The notes under the pieces are model-generated. The model saw only the letters and a program-made list of their open reading frames with translations. It searched no databases and was not told where the DNA came from. Below are positions 3,989-19,139 of a stretch of DNA of 20,000 bases, piece by piece. Position 1 is the stretch's first letter. Every line of letters starts with the position of its first letter. The translations under genes were made by a program, and so were the position numbers. The stretch comes from an uncultured virus (IMG/VR IMGVR_UViG_3300037420_001751) (lineage: Duplodnaviria; Heunggongvirae; Uroviricota; Caudoviricetes): the IMG/VR virus record IMGVR_UViG_3300037420_001751; one strand, given 5' to 3'.

Positions 3989-4438
3989 TTACTGCCGGAC
4001 GAAAAACAAATATGTTTCCGACGCGGTAGGCGTGATCGGTGACGCGGTGTTGTTGCAGAAGTTGATCCCAACCTGGTTCGCCGCGGATGCTCGAACGTTC
4101 GGAACGCTGAGCCCGGCTTGCGCCGAGGGTTTGTTTACATCCACCACATCGCCGGTTGCCACACCGGTAACGGTGAACGTTTGCTCCGCGCAGGTGTTGG
4201 CCGCGACCTGAGCGGGGGAAATGGTGGCGGTAAGCTTTCCGAGACGGGTCACGGATGCGGCTCCGCCGGTCAGCGAAAGCGATCCACCGTCCAACTTGCC
4301 GGTTACTTCGATGAAACCATCCTGCCGGCCGACAGGGCTATTTTCGATCCAACCTTTTCCGCCGCGGCTTTGCGAAAACGCAATCACCGCGAACAGGGCC
4401 AGGCCCAAGAAGATGAGAAAACCACGTGACTTGCTCAT
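3989..4438 (-). CDS. Signal-peptide-bearing protein with a virion decoration-like beta-sandwich C-terminal domain
   Basis: Start MSKSRG after AAGGAG RBS; hydrophobic N-terminus ending AFS-Q; C-terminal pattern ISPAQVAANTCAEQTFTVTGVATGDVV...AANQVGINFCN resembles phage head/tail accessory domains (recalled, not searched). Confidence 0.55.
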   Translation of the reverse strand: MSKSRGFLIFLGLALFAVIAFSQSRGGKGWIENSPVGRQDGFIEVTGKLDGGSLSLTGGAASVTRLGKLTATISPAQVAANTCAEQTFTVTGVATGDVVDVNKPSAQAGLSVPNVRASAANQVGINFCNNTASPITPTASETYLFFVRQ

Positions 4439-4470: not shown

Positions 4471-4500
4471 AAAACAAAAAGCGCCCACAAGGAGCGCTTT
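4471..4500 (-). terminator. Rho-independent terminator
   Basis: AAAGCGCTC-CTTGT-GGGCGCTTT then TTGTTTT on the minus strand. Confidence 0.75.
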
Positions 4501-4521
4501 ATGATCCTGACGGGGCTCGAT

Positions 4522-4896
4522 TTAGAGCCGCAGCGGTGATCGGTTCTGCCAGATGTACTGGTCTGGTTCTGCGTTGACGTTGAAAAACGGATCGGACACC
4601 GTACATCGTCTGGTGACCTTTGCCTCCGTGTTCATGTATCTGCCGAGGATCGCGTGCGTACGATCCATGACTTCCTGATCGGCGCCGGCCGTGAAATGTT
4701 CGGCGGCTGCCGGTTCCTGCATGATCGACTGCTCTTTGCTATAAATAACATTCATGGCCGGAGCCACGGCTACAGGCGGCGATGCACGCATGGCCGTCAC
4801 AGCCTCTTGGTGGTGGGTGCTCGTCGGCACCGCGCTAGCGGAGACGGCGAAAACGCCCAGGAGCAGGACAAGCGTGAGTACAAGCAACGTTCTCAT
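4522..4896 (-). CDS. Hypothetical exported protein
   Basis: Start MRTLLVLTLVLLLGVFAVSASA, a Sec-type signal peptide; preceded by TTGTGC-17-TAAGCT with ATG 8 nt after the -10. Confidence 0.65.
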   Translation of the reverse strand: MRTLLVLTLVLLLGVFAVSASAVPTSTHHQEAVTAMRASPPVAVAPAMNVIYSKEQSIMQEPAAAEHFTAGADQEVMDRTHAILGRYMNTEAKVTRRCTVSDPFFNVNAEPDQYIWQNRSPLRL

Positions 4897-4937
4897 ATAG
4901 GAAAAGCTTACGCGGGGGAGGAGGGTTGCACAAGGCA

Positions 4938-4966
4938 AATTAAAAGCGGGGATTGCTCCCCGCTCT
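4938..4966 (-). terminator. Rho-independent terminator ending the ncRNA cassette
   Basis: AGCGGGGA-GCAA-TCCCCGCT followed by TTTAATTT. Confidence 0.85.
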
Positions 4967-5357
4967 CGACTCTTCTGTTGCTAGGCGTATGAGTCCCGGC
5001 CCCGCGTACCTATTTCTAGGCCGCAGCCGCCATTGCCATTGCCTTTTTAGGGGCGAACGGAACGACGTTGGATACAGTGGTTTTGCCAGCTATATCGATT
5101 GTGTGTCGACTACGTGCGCCACACCACCCGGCACGAAACAGTTCCGTCGAAGCCGTGACGCCCCCACCGTGAGCGACTCGTCATTGCTGAGCAGGGAGCT
5201 GTTAATCGCTTGTCAGGCCCAAAGAACGAGTGACAACGCGCCCGGCTATCTTGACTCCTCAATAGCCAGCATCCCTCGAATCGCGCACGGTGGAGGCGGC
5301 GGGAGTTGAACCCGCGTCCGAAACTGCGTTGACGTGCGTAGCGGAGAACAGGGTGAA
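4945..5357 (-). ncRNA. ssrA: Circularly permuted (two-piece) tmRNA gene
   Basis: Acceptor piece first (~5357-5291, ends GGACGCGGGTTCAACTCCCGCCGCCTCCA); intervening segment 5290-5166; coding piece starts at 5165 GGGGGCGTCACGGCTTCGACGG; 7-bp stem GGGGGCG/CGCCTCC with G3-U70; inter-piece helix CGGAACTGT/GCAGTTTCG; tag ORF 5087-5016. Confidence 0.95.
5016..5087 (-). other. tmRNA tag reading frame (A)GKTTVSNVVPFAPKKAMAMAAAA*
   Basis: Resume context ATAGCT|GGC AAA; 23 codons then TAG; hydrophobic Ala-Ala C-terminus typical of ssrA degrons. Confidence 0.9.
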
Positions 5358-5361
5358 CAAA

Positions 5362-5726
5362 AAGGCTCAACTCATCCCCCGAATCCAACCGCCGTACTTC
5401 CCGCCACGGCTCGTGGCGATATGTTTACGTGGCGCGTCCGCCCAAGGTGGAACGTATTTCCTGTCCTCTTTGTCATAAAGTGCGGTTGTATGCCTACGAC
5501 CACACCCGGCCTATCAGAGGTCAGGGGCCCTTTACACCGTCGGGGCCAGCGCGGTGGTCCGCCCTGTTCCCCGCTACGTACATCAAATGGCCGTCTCTCC
5601 GACCTGTCATACGGATTCTCTTAGGAGTGCTAGCGTATTTAGAACCGTATATTAACGTGCTCTCATTCCGGTCTCCCATTCGGGCTAGGACCTACCCAGA
5701 CATGTCCTTCGCAGTGATCGAGCCTT
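5362..5726 (-). ncRNA. Large structured ncRNA, possibly a compact ROOL-like RNA
   Basis: Closing helix AAGGCTCGA/TTGAGCCTT (extendable); internal helices ATACGGTTCT/AGAATCCGTAT, AGGTCGG/CTGACCT, GGCCC/GGGCC, GTGTGGTCGTA/TACAACCGCAC, CGCCACG/CGTGGCG; no credible ORF. Family assignment is from recall only. Confidence 0.6.
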
Positions 5727-5735
5727 AGGTACCAG

Positions 5736-5853
5736 GCTGGTCTAGTCACAAAGATCAAAATTTGGTATACGGTGGTGAGTTTTTGGTTCACCGTATCTTT
5801 CCAGCACTCCCGAAAGGTGTATCCAGCTTCGACCATTGAACCCACAGGCCAGC
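5736..5853 (-). ncRNA. Rod-like structured RNA of unknown type
   Basis: Nested pairings GCTGG/CCAGC, GGTCGAAG/TTTTGATC, TGG-ATAC/GTAT-A-CCA, apical GGTGA/TCACC; lies between two other ncRNA domains. Confidence 0.4.
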
Positions 5854-5865
5854 AGTCGGGGTGCA

Positions 5866-6067
5866 GGCTGTAATTTGAGAGCCCCACCGCTCCGATTCGA
5901 ACGGAGAGTACCGGCATTGGATAACCCAGTATCCGATGCGCTGGTGACAACGAGGATGCCTCCTCCGCCACTCCCTATTGCGTACCGCGTCACGCTAAAC
6001 GTGACAGCGGGTAGGTCACTCCAGGCACACGCAATGCGCCACCTTGTGGGGCTCTCAAATTACAGCC
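5866..6067 (-). ncRNA. Oversized tRNA-like RNA closed by a perfect 22-bp inverted repeat
   Basis: GGCTGTAATTTGAGAGCCCCAC at 5866-5887 and its reverse complement at 6046-6067; T-arm CTCCG-TTCGAAT-CGGAG (5906-5890) next to the closing stem; three further arms. Confidence 0.65.
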
Positions 6068-6108
6068 AGTCAAAAGCAGGATTGCCCGCCAACCCTGCTC
6101 TTGACTGG
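6066..6108 (-). other. 19-bp RNA hairpin
   Basis: CCAGTCAAGAGCAGGGTTG-GCGGG-CAATCCTGCTTTTGACTGG; fully paired on the minus strand using two G-U pairs. Confidence 0.7.
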
Positions 6109-6209
6109 ATGGACCGGGGTATGTCAGCCACGGTCGTCCAGTGTGCGGAGGCGCCAGAGCATAGCGGCCTCACAGCTCCGCGGGGCACAGGTCCCGCATC
6201 ACTAAGTAC

Positions 6210-6238
6210 ATGCTAGCAGCGCATGTTTGTACGTACAA
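6210..6238 (-). promoter_or_regulatory. Sigma70-type promoter for the ncRNA cassette
   Basis: TTGTAC-17 nt-TAGCAT with extended -10 TG, preceded by ACC as in other promoters of this window. Confidence 0.7.
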
Positions 6239-6245
6239 GGTATTC

Positions 6246-6458
6246 TCAATCCCTCTTCTTGGGCGGAACGATACGCAGTATCTCTTGCACTAGTTCCGTG
6301 TGCTCCGAATTCATCAAGCGCATCACATCCGCGCTGATTTCTTCGATCTTGGGTAGCCGCAAGGGCAGCGGCAAAACCGCAAACTTGCCGGCAAGGATGT
6401 TGATTTGCATGTTTGCATGGTACAGCTTTTTGAAGAGCTTGAATTCCTTTTCCGTCAC
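6246..6458 (-). CDS. Hypothetical protein
   Basis: 70 aa ORF with 4-nt overlap to the upstream gene. Confidence 0.55.
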   Translation of the reverse strand: MTEKEFKLFKKLYHANMQINILAGKFAVLPLPLRLPKIEEISADVMRLMNSEHTELVQEILRIVPPKKRD

Positions 6459-6730
6459 GGTTTCCCCACAAAGGCAGAACTACGATAGTAGTCGTCGTGA
6501 TGCGCTTGGTCATATCGGTGCCCTTCTGAAACTTCGTGAGCACGGTAACCCCACCATTTCTTGTAGTAGTCACCGAAATCACTGTCCAAACAGAGTTTGA
6601 CCAGCTTAGGACGGGGGTCGTATCCGGTCCCCAAGCAGCGGTAACACGTATACATCCGTACCTCCCCTCCGCCGCTTTGAACCGTCACCATCCCATCGCC
6701 CTCACAGCTCCGACAGGCGTTTGATTCCAT
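6455..6730 (-). CDS. Small protein with DnaJ-type CxxCxGxG zinc finger
   Basis: CRSCEGDG and CYRCLGTG; ATG 6 nt after a TAGCAT -10. Confidence 0.65.
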   Translation of the reverse strand: MESNACRSCEGDGMVTVQSGGGEVRMYTCYRCLGTGYDPRPKLVKLCLDSDFGDYYKKWWGYRAHEVSEGHRYDQAHHDDYYRSSAFVGKP

Positions 6731-9468: not shown

Positions 9469-9768
9469 CTACTTGGCCATATACGTGACGTGACGTCCCT
9501 CGCGCTTCTTGCTGATGGCAAAGTCGCGCTCATCGGGGAGCCGGCTCAGCTGCGCACGCACCGTGATTTGCATGCCCTCGCGCTTGCGGTCGGGGAACTG
9601 CTTCTGCAGCGTGTCGAGGATGCCCGCGACCGTGACCGGCTTTTTCTTTGCCTTCGCCTCGGTCAGCTGCGTGATGATGCTGGCGATAATGCCCGGCTGC
9701 GCGGTCGTCGTTGCGTTGGCTTTGGCTGTAACTGCTTGCTGGGGAGCTGCTGCTTTGTGCTTTGACAT
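9469..9768 (-). CDS. Small basic putative DNA-binding (winged-helix-like) protein, paralog 1
   Basis: Shares QPGIIA.I...L..AK...KPVT...ILD.L.K.FPDR...GM.ITVRAQLSRLP...REGR.VTY with 10108-10431; own promoter TAGACA-17-TACATT (9855-9827). Confidence 0.75.
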   Translation of the reverse strand: MSKHKAAAPQQAVTAKANATTTAQPGIIASIITQLTEAKAKKKPVTVAGILDTLQKQFPDRKREGMQITVRAQLSRLPDERDFAISKKREGRHVTYMAK

Positions 9769-10107: not shown

Positions 10108-10431
10108 TTAGGCGGCCGCGTAGGTGACCACGCGCCCTTCGCGATGCTTCTTGATCTTCAGGTCCTTCTCGCGCGGCAGACGCGAGAGCTGGGCGCGGAC
10201 GGTGATCATCATTCCCGACGCTTCGCGGTCAGGGAACTTCTTCGCCAGGTGATCGAGGATCTGCTTCGAAGTGACCGGCTTGCCGTTCTCCTTGGCCTTC
10301 TTCAGCGTGGTGACGATCTCGGCGATGATACCAGGCTGCGCCGTGGTCTCCGCGTTCTGCTTGCTGTTCGCCGCGACTGCTTCCGCTGCCTTGGTGCTAT
10401 TCTTTTTGGCCTTCACTGCTTTGGTGGACAT
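10108..10431 (-). CDS. Small basic putative DNA-binding protein, paralog 2
   Basis: Lys/Ala-rich N-tail and the same core as 9469-9768; promoter TTGTAG-17-TAGGAT (10532-10504); RBS CACAGGAG. Confidence 0.8.
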   Translation of the reverse strand: MSTKAVKAKKNSTKAAEAVAANSKQNAETTAQPGIIAEIVTTLKKAKENGKPVTSKQILDHLAKKFPDREASGMMITVRAQLSRLPREKDLKIKKHREGRVVTYAAA

Positions 10432-10661
10432 ACTGTGTTCTCCTGTGCTGTTTGGCTAGGGTGCGCGGTAGCGTTGCCCCGCGTCCCTGCTAGCAATGTG
10501 TACATCCTAATATGGGCAACGCTACCCTACAAGGTAAATCGAAAAATATTTTGGGGTCGAAAGGTTCCAGGTAATTTGACCGCGGCTAGAGGTCAGCTGA
10601 CGAATCGGCTGAATCGTCATTTTTGGATTAGTAACCACCTGACGAATCATTCGCTATCGAT

Positions 10662-12549: not shown

Positions 12550-13115
12550 ATGAGTCCATTGTTCTTGGTCAATGGTCGGAGGTCAATTTTGGATTAGTAA
12601 CCACTTTTGGATAATTTCGACCTGAAGAAATGTCATCTGGTATAGCGGATGGTAAACCAGATGGTGAACCAGTGGTTTTTGCACTCTCCGGAAAACAACG
12701 GTGTATGCGGTGTCATGTAGGTATAGCAAGTTTTTGAAGTACTGGGTCGTGGATTGAAGGACGGGGGAAACATTGTCATGAGACCTGTAGGTTTCCACCG
12801 TCCATTAGTGTCAGGTGCTGACACCGTACTAAAAGCTGTACTGTCTATGGTTTACCCTGTTTTGGTGTCAGCGTGTCAGCACTTTTGGGATTTTATTCAA
12901 TCCACGACTCGCTATTTTTAAAAGTTGCATAGTAAGCGCCCGCTGGCACCTCCGGCCTCCAGCCTCCGCCTAACTCACTCATACCAAAGTCATTACCACC
13001 AAAAACATCCACTAACAGCCGTGTCTACCATTTTTGGTAATGTACACCCAAGACACCAAAAGGCACCCGTTCTCGGGCAAATTTACATTTAAAAATAATT
13101 GAGTTAATTTTAATA
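12550..13115. promoter_or_regulatory. Divergent non-coding control region with repeats (candidate packaging site, genome end or origin)
   Basis: No credible ORF; lower GC; GATGGTRAACCA x2 (12648-12671); GTGTCAG-N3-CTGACAC (12808-12824); GTGTCAGC x2 (12865-12880). Confidence 0.5.
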
Positions 13116-15241: not shown

Positions 15242-15367
15242 GATTGGACAAGACATTCAAATCCCAACCACAGACGGTTACACACTGCACTGTCGTATCA
15301 TCAACATCCTTGCACCGGTACCCGCCTTCTTGTTACCACAACCGCGATTCAAAAAGAAAGGTTGCAC

Positions 15368-16000
15368 ATGGAATACCACAAAATCGAAACACTCTTCGAA
15401 CGCGACGAGCAAACGTTCAAAGTCAAACCGGGCGTCTTCAAAAACCGCACCTACTCGCTCCTCAAAAGCTGGGTCTGGACGGAAAAGATCGACGGGACGA
15501 ATATCCGACTGATCTACGAACCGCAAGTTCCGGGCATTACCGGGAGCCTCCGCATTGCGGGTAAGACGGATAAAGCCTCCGTCCCCGCGCAACTGGTGAA
15601 ATGGGCCTCCGACCCCGATCTGCTGAAACTGCTCGTCGTCACATTCCCCGATGCGCCGGTGGTCCTGTACGGCGAAGGCTACGGCGCCGGCATCCAGAAA
15701 GGCGGGGTCTACGCACAGCAACAAGGCTTTATCTTGTTTGATGTGCTCGTGGCTGGGAAGTGGTGGCTGAGTGACGAGAACATGCGCAACGTCGCATCCA
15801 AGCTCGCCCTCAAGGCAGTGCCGCTCGTGGGCACAATGTCTTTGGAACAGGCTACAGAAATGGTTCACCAGGGATTCGCGAGCCAGGTCGGTCAAGGTGC
15901 TCCAGCGGAGGGCTTAGTCGGCCGTCCCGCCGAGACGCTGTTTGACAAGAAAGGCGCCCGCCTCATCACCAAGCTGAAGACGAAGGACTTTGCCCGGTGA
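15368..16000 (+). CDS. ATP-dependent RNA ligase (Rnl2-like adenylyltransferase domain)
   Basis: Motif I TEKIDGTN, III LYGEGYG, IIIa FILFDV, IV EGLVGRP, V ITKLKTKDF; N-terminal YHKIETLF; no OB-fold domain. Confidence 0.85.
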   Translation: MEYHKIETLFERDEQTFKVKPGVFKNRTYSLLKSWVWTEKIDGTNIRLIYEPQVPGITGSLRIAGKTDKASVPAQLVKWASDPDLLKLLVVTFPDAPVVLYGEGYGAGIQKGGVYAQQQGFILFDVLVAGKWWLSDENMRNVASKLALKAVPLVGTMSLEQATEMVHQGFASQVGQGAPAEGLVGRPAETLFDKKGARLITKLKTKDFAR

Positions 16001-17320: not shown

Positions 17321-17581
17321 ATGAAATACCACAACCGCTACCGGACAATCGAGTGCATTCGGCAGACACTAGCCTTTGCATTTGAAAAGGAGGGTGCGAA
17401 CTGCCTTTTGTACACCGCTCAACGTCCGTATACGCTGGGGATGGTGCGCTTGTTCCTCCGCTGCGCAAAGGTTGCATACTACGAGGATTCGGATAACGCG
17501 TTTCTGTTCCCCAACGGCTCCGTTGTCCACGTTACCGAACCTCAGCCCCCTCCGCCGATGGTTCCGTTCTATGAGCAGTAG
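17321..17581 (+). CDS. Hypothetical protein (probably leaderless)
   Basis: TG-C-TAGAAT 7 nt before ATG. Confidence 0.55.
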   Translation: MKYHNRYRTIECIRQTLAFAFEKEGANCLLYTAQRPYTLGMVRLFLRCAKVAYYEDSDNAFLFPNGSVVHVTEPQPPPPMVPFYEQ

Positions 17582-17586
17582 TAACC

Positions 17587-17615
17587 TTACGAACAAAAAT
17601 TTTTGTTGTTAGTGT
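17587..17615 (+). promoter_or_regulatory. Promoter with palindromic operator-like site
   Basis: TTACGA-17-TAGTGT with CAAAAATTTTTG (17594-17605) in the spacer; same layout at 19085-19113. Confidence 0.6.
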
Positions 17616-19069: not shown

Positions 19070-19084
19070 GGAGCAGGCTACACC

Positions 19085-19113
19085 TTAAGTTCAAAAATTT
19101 TTGCTGTTATATT
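19085..19113 (+). promoter_or_regulatory. Promoter with palindromic operator-like site
   Basis: TTAAGT-17-TATATT, extended TG, CAAAAATTTTTG at 19092-19103. Confidence 0.65.
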
Positions 19114-19139
19114 TGTCCTAGTAAACACAGGAGACCACA

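Follow-up and report, generated by a model that had tools for sequence, protein, structure and literature searches.

A two-piece tmRNA gene and three long stems in a non-coding stretch of an uncultured soil phage

A permuted tmRNA gene in a non-coding stretch

The minus strand of a 20,000-nucleotide (nt) stretch of DNA from an uncultured virus (IMG/VR record IMGVR_UViG_3300037420_001751), here called the window and meaning that stretch at its full length, holds a non-coding stretch (6245-4940) in front of the phage packaging genes, and the 3' third of this non-coding stretch is a real circularly permuted (two-piece) transfer-messenger RNA (tmRNA) gene (Table 1). By their content, the genes of the window are those of a tailed phage. 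The original prediction for this locus had read it as a single all-RNA operon, bracketed by one promoter and one terminator and filled with abutting, self-contained RNAs, namely leader hairpins, a tRNA-like unit, a rod, a large ornate domain, and a split tmRNA. On the gene map, the non-coding stretch and its surroundings lie on one strand, with all flanking genes from 12798 to 13 on the minus strand.

Table 1. Features of the non-coding stretch and of the neighbouring minus-strand genes
Feature	Position	Strand	Basis or remark
HNH endonuclease	7390-6740	-	Upstream of non-coding stretch
91-aa zinc-ribbon protein	6730-6455	-	Upstream of non-coding stretch
70-aa protein	6458-6246	-	Between zinc-ribbon gene and non-coding stretch
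Non-coding stretch with tmRNA	6245-4940	-	
Candidate promoter TTGTAC-17-TAGCAT, TG before it	6238-6210	-	Sequence reading; statistically unsupported
19-bp hairpin with two G.U pairs (6108-6090 with 6084-6066)	6108-6066	-	Terminator-like; attenuator or stabiliser possible
Unit closed by perfect 22-bp stem (6067-6046 with 5887-5866), 158-nt interior	6067-5866	-	Inverted-repeat search, 100% complementary
T-arm-like hairpin CUCCG-UUCGAAU-CGGAG	5906-5890	-	2 nt before 3' arm of 22-bp stem
Linker of ~280 nt (covers predicted rod and start of predicted large domain)	5865-5586	-	No significant excess structure
Unit closed by 17-bp + 6-bp stem, 208-nt interior	5585-5330	-	Whole-stretch fold, stem enumeration
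tmRNA acceptor piece	5337-5289	-	Starts with P2 5' strand; Rfam alignment, ARAGORN
tmRNA T arm GCGGG-UUCAACU-CCCGC	5315-5299	-	Rfam alignment; canonical
Acceptor 3' strand CGCCUCC	5298-5292	-	Followed by ACC, 5291-5289
Intervening segment, removed on maturation	5288-5166	-	Rfam, ARAGORN
tmRNA coding piece	5165-4942	-	ARAGORN, Rfam; includes terminator hairpin
Acceptor 5' strand GGGGGCG	5165-5159	-	Pairs with CGCCUCC, 7-bp stem
Tag reading frame	5087-5016	-	GKTTVSNVVPFAPKKAMAMAAAA, then stop
Terminator-like hairpin closing tmRNA gene	4967-4942	-	Terminator scan
124-aa protein with signal peptide	4896-4522	-	Followed by two more small proteins
Large terminase	3646-2387	-	T4-type N-terminal domain (Pfam Terminase_6N)
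Portal	2390-867	-	DUF4055-type
Scaffold	789-13	-	

The prediction had seen no credible protein gene in this region, and both codon use and database searches bear this out. All 12 in-region open reading frames (ORFs; 43-127 codons) gave codon-use scores of 0.015 or less, 11 of them negative, with flat GC1/2/3 values; for contrast, 13 of the 15 training genes scored positive and displayed the usual GC2 dip. Nothing better than a single match was obtained from Pfam (9 in-region ORFs, E 0.06) or from PHROGs (12 in-region ORFs, E 0.074), and two in-region ORFs used as queries against 5.8 billion proteins found no relative. ORF 5663-5971 had two matches among 1.84 billion representative proteins, both of them long proteins with repeats; nine repeats, each scoring ~25 bits, add up to the best E-value (1.6e-7), and the match is judged a repeat-summing artefact, yet it is the sole result that opposes non-coding status. 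Small proteins encoded in 5380-6245 were considered and rejected, as no ORF of at least 20 codons there is preceded by a CACAGGAG-type ribosome site and three ORFs have weak Shine-Dalgarno-like motifs only. Elsewhere, the ribosome-site context CACAGGAG(C/A)ACA is common to several phage genes. The conserved coding signal that the prediction had named as evidence against itself was not found in the in-region ORFs by codon use, Pfam, PHROGs, or protein queries, and the stretch 6245-4940 (-) is non-coding.

The tmRNA gene lies where it had been predicted. In the window ARAGORN made a single call, for a permuted tmRNA (4925-5380, -) in which the 3' tRNA domain (5326-5289) precedes the 5' tRNA domain (5165-5139), and the Rfam model RF04321 (tmRNA_permuted) aligns end to end (model positions 1-213 of 213) with 5337-5046 (-) at 66.3 bits against a gathering score of 47 (E 4.6e-11). 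None of the clade-specific two-piece models RF01849, RF01850, and RF01851, which have been merged as RF04321 (PMC11915505), rose above its gathering score in the window. The two acceptor strands form the G3:U70 alanine identity pair, and in the precursor the ends of the intervening segment lengthen the acceptor stem to 13 bp (5298-5286 with 5171-5159). The tag is long, contains lysine, and ends in AAAA before the stop, which is the hydrophobic ..AA ending of a degradation signal; ARAGORN's library returned 'Tag not identified', and the resume codon is either GCU or GGC. Going by family membership, the RNA would cooperate with SmpB, be charged with alanine, and tag proteins. A search of 4800-6400 with Rfam at E<=10 returned tmRNA models and two noise hits only, and no riboswitch.

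Just upstream of the acceptor piece, the sequence GGCGGUUGGAUUCG (5393-5380, -) is like the 5' end of a standard one-piece tmRNA. The one-piece model RF00023, placed over 5288-5393 so as to take in GGCGGUUGGAUUCG and the real T arm, scored 41.6 bits, under the cut-off of 47, and the match may be accidental or a leftover of the duplication by which the gene became permuted. A second tmRNA upstream was rejected, there being no G3:U70 pair and no tag frame. Mycobacteriophage DS6A is reported to have a mini tmRNA that lacks a coding frame (PMC11915505).

Integration into ssrA is common among phages, which then carry the 3' part of that gene, and the blastn matches of the stretch in enterobacterial phages are exactly such ssrA fragments. 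The tmRNA copy might likewise be an integration module, that is, an attP plus the gene part that restores a permuted ssrA of the host, and not be used in infection; an element entering the acceptor piece would presumably need everything downstream of the crossover. However, the copy is complete, including the part upstream of the T arm, the 34 ORFs scanned in the 20-kb window include no recombinase or integrase, and the locus lies between the HNH/zinc-ribbon block and the terminase gene rather than beside a lysogeny module. Complete two-piece tmRNAs are, moreover, known in lytic phages (PMC9004378), and an integration module is regarded here as very improbable.

In a survey of 18,146 phage genomes, 402 (~2%) carried tmRNA genes, 133 of them unique; 53 of these 133 were called two-piece by ARAGORN, and 50 of the 53 came from marine or aquatic phages, with published examples in OM43 phage Melnitz, pelagimyophages, and cyanophages (PMC9004378). 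The window gene shares with these the permuted order, the G3:U70 pair, a tag frame of its own, carriage by a phage, and detection by ARAGORN and RF04321. It differs from them in coming from a phage of soil and rhizosphere, not water, that has a Terminase_6N terminase and a DUF4055-type portal; in its apparent position inside a long untranslated leader, where no promoter of its own is recognisable; in having a 17(+6)-bp helix that abuts the acceptor piece; and in its long, lysine-containing tag ending in AAAA, with no riboswitch. Bacterial two-piece tmRNA genes typically stand alone with their own promoter, unlike the seemingly leader-embedded gene of the window. Those of the Caulobacter type share with it the architecture of the tRNA-like domain and the expected maturation by ribonuclease (RNase) P and 3' trimming (PMC11915505, PMC3985003). 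What is secure is thus one new member, from a soil phage, of a tmRNA family already known in two-piece form; it is notable mainly for that origin and for its unusual tag, and this example from soil widens a picture in which two-piece phage tmRNA has been reported almost only from aquatic phages.

Three outlier stems and the sequence between them

The 1.3-kb region was folded whole, helices with a pair probability of at least 0.8 were listed, and contiguous stems were then enumerated, with 400 dinucleotide shuffles of 6245-4935 as the null model. Three stems, of 22, 19, and 17 bp, are the top three in the full 20 kb on both strands (span up to 500). Their Watson-Crick pairs number 22, 17, and 16, respectively, against a shuffle maximum of 14, and none of the 400 shuffles reached 16. 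The predicted 19-bp hairpin (6108-6066) is firmly supported (-32.4 kcal/mol, z -8.7, 0/200 shuffles as good). The 22-bp stem closes the predicted tRNA-like unit, which, folded as 6075-5860, gave z -7.7, a signal that comes almost wholly from the closing stem. The third stem, absent from the prediction, pairs 5578-5562 with 5353-5337 (one G.U) and continues after one A.C mismatch for a further 6 bp (5585-5580 with 5335-5330). Both parts of this 17+6-bp helix have a pair probability of at least 0.8 in the fold of the whole of 6245-4935, competing tmRNA pairing included, and the unit that it closes has z -5.3 as a whole (0/200 shuffles). The last base in the 3' arm of the 17-bp stem, 5337, coincides with position 1 of the Rfam tmRNA model, and the 6-bp extension occupies acceptor-piece bases whose partners in the mature RNA belong to the coding piece. 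About two helical turns of duplex are the classical form of an RNase III substrate, and the stems, at 22 bp, 19 bp (two G.U), and 17 bp (one G.U) plus 6 bp, match this form of roughly two turns of near-perfect duplex by their sequence.

Such repeats might also act as DNA. Invertible DNA segments are marked by inverted repeats around 100-750 bp, a site-specific recombinase, and the occurrence of both orientations in a population. Invertible promoters usually have repeats of 17-22 bp around 150-210 bp, sizes that the repeats of the window fit; the 158-bp and 208-bp segments could be invertible and phase-variable, or the repeats could be targets of proteins or of recombination. The perfection of the 22-bp repeat, which lacks any G.U pair, would fit, as would interiors that show no unusual structure as RNA. 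On the other side, the window encodes no recombinase among the ORFs scanned, neither segment contains a promoter-like site on either strand, and all three non-Watson-Crick pairs within the 19- and 17-bp stems are G.U on the transcribed minus strand and A.C on the plus strand. This pattern mildly favours an RNA-level reading, in a count biased by a stem search that admitted G.U and not A.C. Further, each of the three contigs that run across a repeat arm into the interior, one at the 22-bp arm (X4 record 7) and two at the 17-bp arm (X5 record 13, X6 record 22), has the reference orientation, with no joints reported, in a small, low-depth sample of contigs only. Inversion, or another role of the repeats as DNA, is considered highly unlikely.

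Outside the three stems, the units claimed by the prediction fared less well when they were folded individually against dinucleotide shuffles (100-200 per unit). The leader hairpins (6200-6107) are at chance level (z -0.49, 63/200 shuffles as good), and the rod (5853-5736) is marginal (z -2.3, 5/200 shuffles as good) and did not emerge as a solid fold. For the large domain (5726-5362), the overall fold retains marginal support (z -3.2, 0/100 shuffles), whereas the 10-bp stem said to close it is at chance level. Sliding windows over 5501-5900 gave z -0.26 to -0.41, and sliding 200-nt fold z-scores did not set the stretch apart from coding DNA. Sequence other than the tmRNA, the stems, and the 158-nt loop of the 22-bp stem is best treated as spacer.

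The tRNA-like unit of the prediction (6067-5866) stands in part. Its perfect 22-bp closure is real, and it contains a T-arm-like hairpin (5906-5890), one of only two such hairpins in the 20 kb on both strands, the other being the T arm of the tmRNA itself; shuffles contain 0.40 per window, or ~0.01 for this stretch and strand. As only 2 nt separate the hairpin from the closing stem and its register in the ViennaRNA fold is a shifted one, the term 'tRNA-like' is limited to a T-arm-like element. The interior of the unit did not fold beyond chance, and a tRNA identity was rejected: ARAGORN made no tRNA call in the window by default, and only implausible tRNA models in the stretch with introns allowed and thresholds lowered. 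With no Rfam match at E<=10, the region 5380-6110 is not detectable as tRNA, YrlA-like RNA, 6S, signal recognition particle RNA, RNase P, GOLLD, ROOL, HEARO, or riboswitch.

Other identities were weighed for the upstream region. GOLLD and ROOL are large ornate RNAs of phages and prophages that are often found beside tRNA genes, and the likeness, one of context only, is that of a non-coding phage stretch of several hundred nt beside a translation-related RNA gene; neither Rfam model has a match at E<=10 in 4800-6400, and folding energy in excess of shuffles is confined to the three stems. A retron was rejected, since a reverse transcriptase is missing and the interior does not form a single long hairpin. 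A miniature transposable element was rejected as well, since neither the window nor the species genomes contain another copy. The 22-bp-closed unit shares with YrlA/Y RNAs a long stem that joins both ends and a T-arm-like hairpin (PMC4201824). YrlA features are a GNCGAA(N0-1)G motif near the 5' end, the element order T, acceptor-like stem, D, and a gene beside rsr (PMC4201824). This identity was also rejected: the motif was not seen by eye in the 5' arm region of the unit, the element order differs, with the T-arm-like hairpin of the window being the last before the 3' strand, and no TROVE/Ro60 (Rsr) domain was found in the window ORFs.

These results bear on the proposal that one operon yields four or more functional RNAs (tRNA-like, rod, large ornate, and tmRNA) that serve translation or act as decoys for anticodon nucleases. 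A long non-coding stretch is unusual in a compact phage genome, and this one shares its strand with a real tmRNA; the rarity of the T-arm-like hairpin in its 22-bp-closed unit, the fold of the large domain, and the presence of an RNA ligase gene in the window (15362-16000) also speak for the proposal. Set against these are the weak folds of the leader, the rod, and the interior of the tRNA-like unit, so that three of the five upstream folds are at or near chance, and domain borders that differ from the significant helices. The lack of Rfam matches and of plausible tRNA models, the lack of homologues and hence of covariation (see below), a terminator-like hairpin inside the supposed operon, and an unsupported promoter count in the same direction. 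The claim of four abutting, self-contained RNAs is not supported, and a toolkit of this kind appears quite unlikely.

Relatives and other permuted tmRNA loci

A blastn search with 5380-6245 against 50,697 phage records gave no match at E<=1. When the full stretch was used, 30 of these records matched, only over a 35-37-nt part of the tmRNA comprising T arm and acceptor, and a plasmid search returned 35 records that again match only this 35-37-nt part. Relatives of the large terminase were found at 32 loci in viral contigs (up to 43% identity) and in metagenome contigs (up to 50% identity, for the best 80 of 382). Across 112 terminase-relative loci (<=50% identity), ARAGORN found three tRNAs and no tmRNA; blastn of the stretch against terminase-relative loci gave five chance-level matches (19-30 nt, E 0.02-0.08), and nhmmer gave none. 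Closer terminase relatives have 64-68% identity (P0001, P0002, P0006, P0013). No relative was found for the portal in the species genomes or for the HNH and zinc-ribbon proteins in the viral contigs. An exact 22-mer of the 22-bp stem occurred neither in the viral contigs nor in the species genomes, and an exact 23-mer across the T-arm-like hairpin had no occurrence in the viral contigs.

The sequence itself is present, identical letter for letter, in low-depth contigs from several soil, rhizosphere, and plant metagenome runs; no RNA run was listed among those that contain it. In the population check, four runs yielded low-depth DNA contigs identical to the window, with no variants and hence no covariation, and all four left bins 5732-5885 uncovered.

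A tmRNA T-arm pattern was present at 140 viral loci, in which ARAGORN called 57 standard and 33 permuted tmRNAs, and none of the 140 is like the upstream region of the window at blastn E<=0.1. Removal of L150, where standard and permuted calls overlap, and of two exact duplicates left 30 distinct permuted loci. Two of these 30 (L195 and L246) have a 17-bp contiguous stem that ends 41-47 nt before the T-arm anchor, and in L123 a 24-nt inverted repeat (88%) ends just upstream of the acceptor piece. A long stem beside the acceptor piece is thus an occasional, not a general, feature of phage permuted tmRNA genes. Reading by eye, rather than a promoter scan, identified promoters before the acceptor piece at three other permuted loci, namely TTGACT-17-TTTAAAT in L143 and L146 and TATAAATA in L122.

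The permuted tmRNA of another viral contig, L160 (945-1292, -), has a 24-residue tag, ASANKTAKVIAFPASASMAFAAAA, that is equal in length to the window tag and has the same ...MA(M/F)AAAA ending; outside the tRNA-like domain the two RNAs align poorly. The two phages possibly have related hosts.

Proposed transcription and processing, and the nature of the upstream sequence

A scan of 4500-6700 called no promoter-like site (shuffle mean 0.9). The predicted promoter, TTGTAC-17-TAGCAT, matches 7 of 12 consensus positions (3/6 and 4/6) and falls under the scan threshold. Its -10 region, GCTAGCAT, resembles the alphaproteobacterial housekeeping -10 motif, a likeness that serves as a lead and not as a test. 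A perfect 12-bp palindrome, TTGTACGTACAA (6238-6227, -), overlaps the proposed -35, and a 6-bp inverted repeat, ACATGC/GCATGT (6208-6226, -), spans the proposed -10; both are possible protein-binding sites. Directly before the acceptor piece no promoter was recognisable in the scan, as the prediction had held. Terminator-like sites were more frequent in 4500-6700 than in shuffles (5 vs 1.6 +/- 1.1). Judged by a G+C-rich hairpin followed by a U run, putative terminators lie at 4967-4942, behind the tmRNA, and at 6108-6066, where the 19-bp hairpin has a G+C-rich inner 9-bp stem followed by UUUU. The terminal hairpin claimed by the prediction is confirmed as terminator-like, whereas its picture of a single promoter-to-terminator unit does not hold: a second terminator-like hairpin lies inside, 100-170 nt behind a promoter that is statistically unsupported.

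RNase P processing and 3' trimming have been proposed for two-piece precursors (PMC3985003). These activities cannot make the 5' end of the acceptor piece, and a gene placed in a long leader and lacking a recognisable promoter of its own would need another route. The reading considered best, and held at about even chances, is that of a tmRNA precursor embedded in a leader: the first hairpin would terminate or attenuate it, and cuts in the manner of RNase III would fall in the long duplexes. As part of this reading, the stretch would be the untranslated leader of the rightmost (structural or late) block of minus-strand genes; its one identifiable RNA gene is the two-piece tmRNA. Judging from co-orientation, the minus strand would be transcribed with the packaging genes or just ahead of them, and the shape of the 19-bp hairpin suggests that it terminates or attenuates transcripts arriving from upstream. 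Read-through RNA would fold into the 22-bp (6067-5866) and 17+6-bp (5585-5330) duplexes, whose stems far exceed chance, and a double-strand-specific nuclease of the RNase III type may cut both. A cut in the second duplex would free the 5' end of the acceptor piece, an end presumably out of reach of any tRNA-processing enzyme, and precursor pairing would switch to the mature pairing between the two pieces. As established for two-piece tmRNAs generally, RNase P would then cut before G5165, the intervening segment would be trimmed, and a 3' A would be added to ACC. By the model match, pairing of the pieces gives a tRNA-like domain that would accept alanine and that has G3:U70 and the canonical T arm, and together with host SmpB the RNA would, as a member of its family, rescue stalled ribosomes and add the tag (A)GKTTVSNVVPFAPKKAMAMAAAA.

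The claim in the original prediction that the acceptor 5' end is made by processing thereby gains indirect support from a helix whose 3' arm ends at the start of the tmRNA model, while the cleavage itself is something we infer. To the extent of the literature covered, mostly open-access journals, no description of RNase III in pre-tmRNA maturation was found. The 17(+6)-bp helix offers a concrete, testable processing proposal for a promoter-less, leader-embedded tmRNA. RNase III stems flank stable RNAs in long precursors, as in 16S/23S rRNA and at phage T7 and lambda sites. The window shares with these the 17-22-bp duplexes formed by arms hundreds of nt apart, beside a stable RNA in what would be a longer transcript; it differs in that its putative processing stems enclose spacer-like sequence, not a stable RNA. 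A second parallel is the lambdoid pR'-tR' late leader, in which tRNA genes stand before the lysis genes in Shiga-toxin phages. The shared order is a small regulator gene, a short leader, a terminator-like hairpin, one or more stable-RNA genes, and late genes, all on one strand. The window departs from it in that its regulator is Q-like only through a zinc ribbon, its promoter is unsupported, its cargo is a tmRNA rather than tRNAs, and no lysis genes are recognised.

Several observations weigh against a processed leader. First, no homologue of 5380-6245 (~0.86 kb) was found in any collection searched, and with no homologue there is no covariation support for any helix. Second, a comparable stem near the acceptor piece is absent in 27 of the 30 permuted loci, and one of the stems that does occur, in L195 (720-1230, +), encloses a direct repeat together with a small ORF that has a strong ribosome site, the ~40-nt repeated segment lying on both sides of the ORF, given which the stem may be a different thing. 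Third, the sequence that the stems enclose or separate folds at chance level: without its 22-bp stem, the 158-nt interior has z -1.5 (15/200 shuffles as good), the 208-nt interior alone has z -0.95, and the linker (5586-5865) has z -1.06 (31/200 shuffles as good), which speaks against 'ornate' RNAs and offers no explanation for the spacer. Fourth, the 22-bp repeat, having no G.U pair, fits a DNA-level feature equally well, and RNase III sites are not predictable from sequence. Further, no SmpB domain was found among the 34 window ORFs scanned, and the 'late leader' reading leans on the weak Q-like label of the 91-aa protein, as does any role of the 19-bp hairpin as a late terminator under Q control. 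The stems and the tmRNA features come from sequence and model matches; transcription and co-transcription of the stretch, termination, every cleavage, and a role in infection are inferences.

An extension of the processed-leader reading would make the stretch a multi-RNA precursor, in which duplex-guided RNase III excision releases the tmRNA and also a second, undescribed T-loop RNA of ~160-200 nt (6067-5866) that works with the translation or tRNA machinery; this is thought rather unlikely. The 158-nt loop with its T-arm-like hairpin may be a second small stable RNA, and the unit 6067-5866 is a candidate for an excised RNA, or a mere processing stem. Were the multi-RNA reading true, stem-guided excision would be a recurrent way of embedding a two-piece tmRNA in an mRNA leader, with L246 and L123 as similar cases, and a stable RNA from the 22-bp-closed unit would add a new one, with a link to ribosome rescue, to the small RNAs of phages. 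If that unit is not a stable RNA, the finding shrinks to one more ordinary member of a known family, with an orphan spacer beside it.

Alternatively, the upstream 0.8 kb may be inert spacer, the stems being by-products of local duplication and inversion, the tmRNA having a promoter of its own that goes unrecognised, and the 19-bp hairpin ending an upstream operon. DNA captured with the tmRNA gene, or remnants of rearrangement, would fit the orphan status of the region in every search, as would the chance-level folding of the linker and the interiors; the sub-threshold GGCGGUUGGAUUCG match to RF00023 could be debris of a duplication, and the promoters of the soil host would not be reliably recognisable. 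Phage genomes, however, rarely retain 0.8 kb of junk, decay would erode perfect repeats, three independent long helices are not expected, and one of these helices ends exactly at the border of the tmRNA model. An inert spacer is rated as rather unlikely. Beyond the family assignment of the tmRNA, the residue of note is the precursor architecture, with three outlier helices, one of them at the site where processing would be needed, and the T-loop hairpin.

Several features elsewhere in the window deserve mention. The 91-aa zinc-ribbon protein matched phrog_6060 and phrog_127 ('Q-like') at E 8.6e-6 and 1.3e-3, respectively, over the zinc ribbon only; the match at E 8.6e-6 spans 41 residues with the CxxCxGxG zinc ribbon, and the best matches among solved structures were DnaJ zinc fingers, at E 0.15 or worse. 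The small proteins encoded at 4522-4896 (-) and 3989-4438 (-) have N-terminal signal or membrane segments and no family match; the interval that they occupy between the tmRNA and terminase genes is the slot expected for lysis genes or morons, and no lysis genes were recognised in the window. An early-looking block of plus-strand genes starts at ~13.1 kb and includes a protein of the RNA ligase family (15362-16000, +; PF09414, E 2.4e-18; phrog_548), given which RNA repair may be part of the repertoire of the phage.

The divergent intergenic region between the minus- and plus-strand blocks contains a 33-nt inverted repeat (12726-12758 / 12896-12928; 79%, 16 contiguous pairs on the plus strand) and is likely an early regulatory region. 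A 23-nt motif, GTCA(T/A)TTTTGGATTAGTAACCAC, has three intergenic copies on the plus strand (10616-10638, 12582-12604, and 19106-19128) that are 74-96% alike, and a repeat pair at 17573-17611 / 19071-19109 contains the palindrome AAAAATTTTT; the motif copies and the repeat pair are possible phage promoters, operators, or terminators. Finally, an 86-nt direct repeat (9632-9717 / 10271-10356; 71%) lies inside the minus-strand ORFs 9469-9768 and 10108-10431, which suggests that these two small ORFs are paralogous genes.

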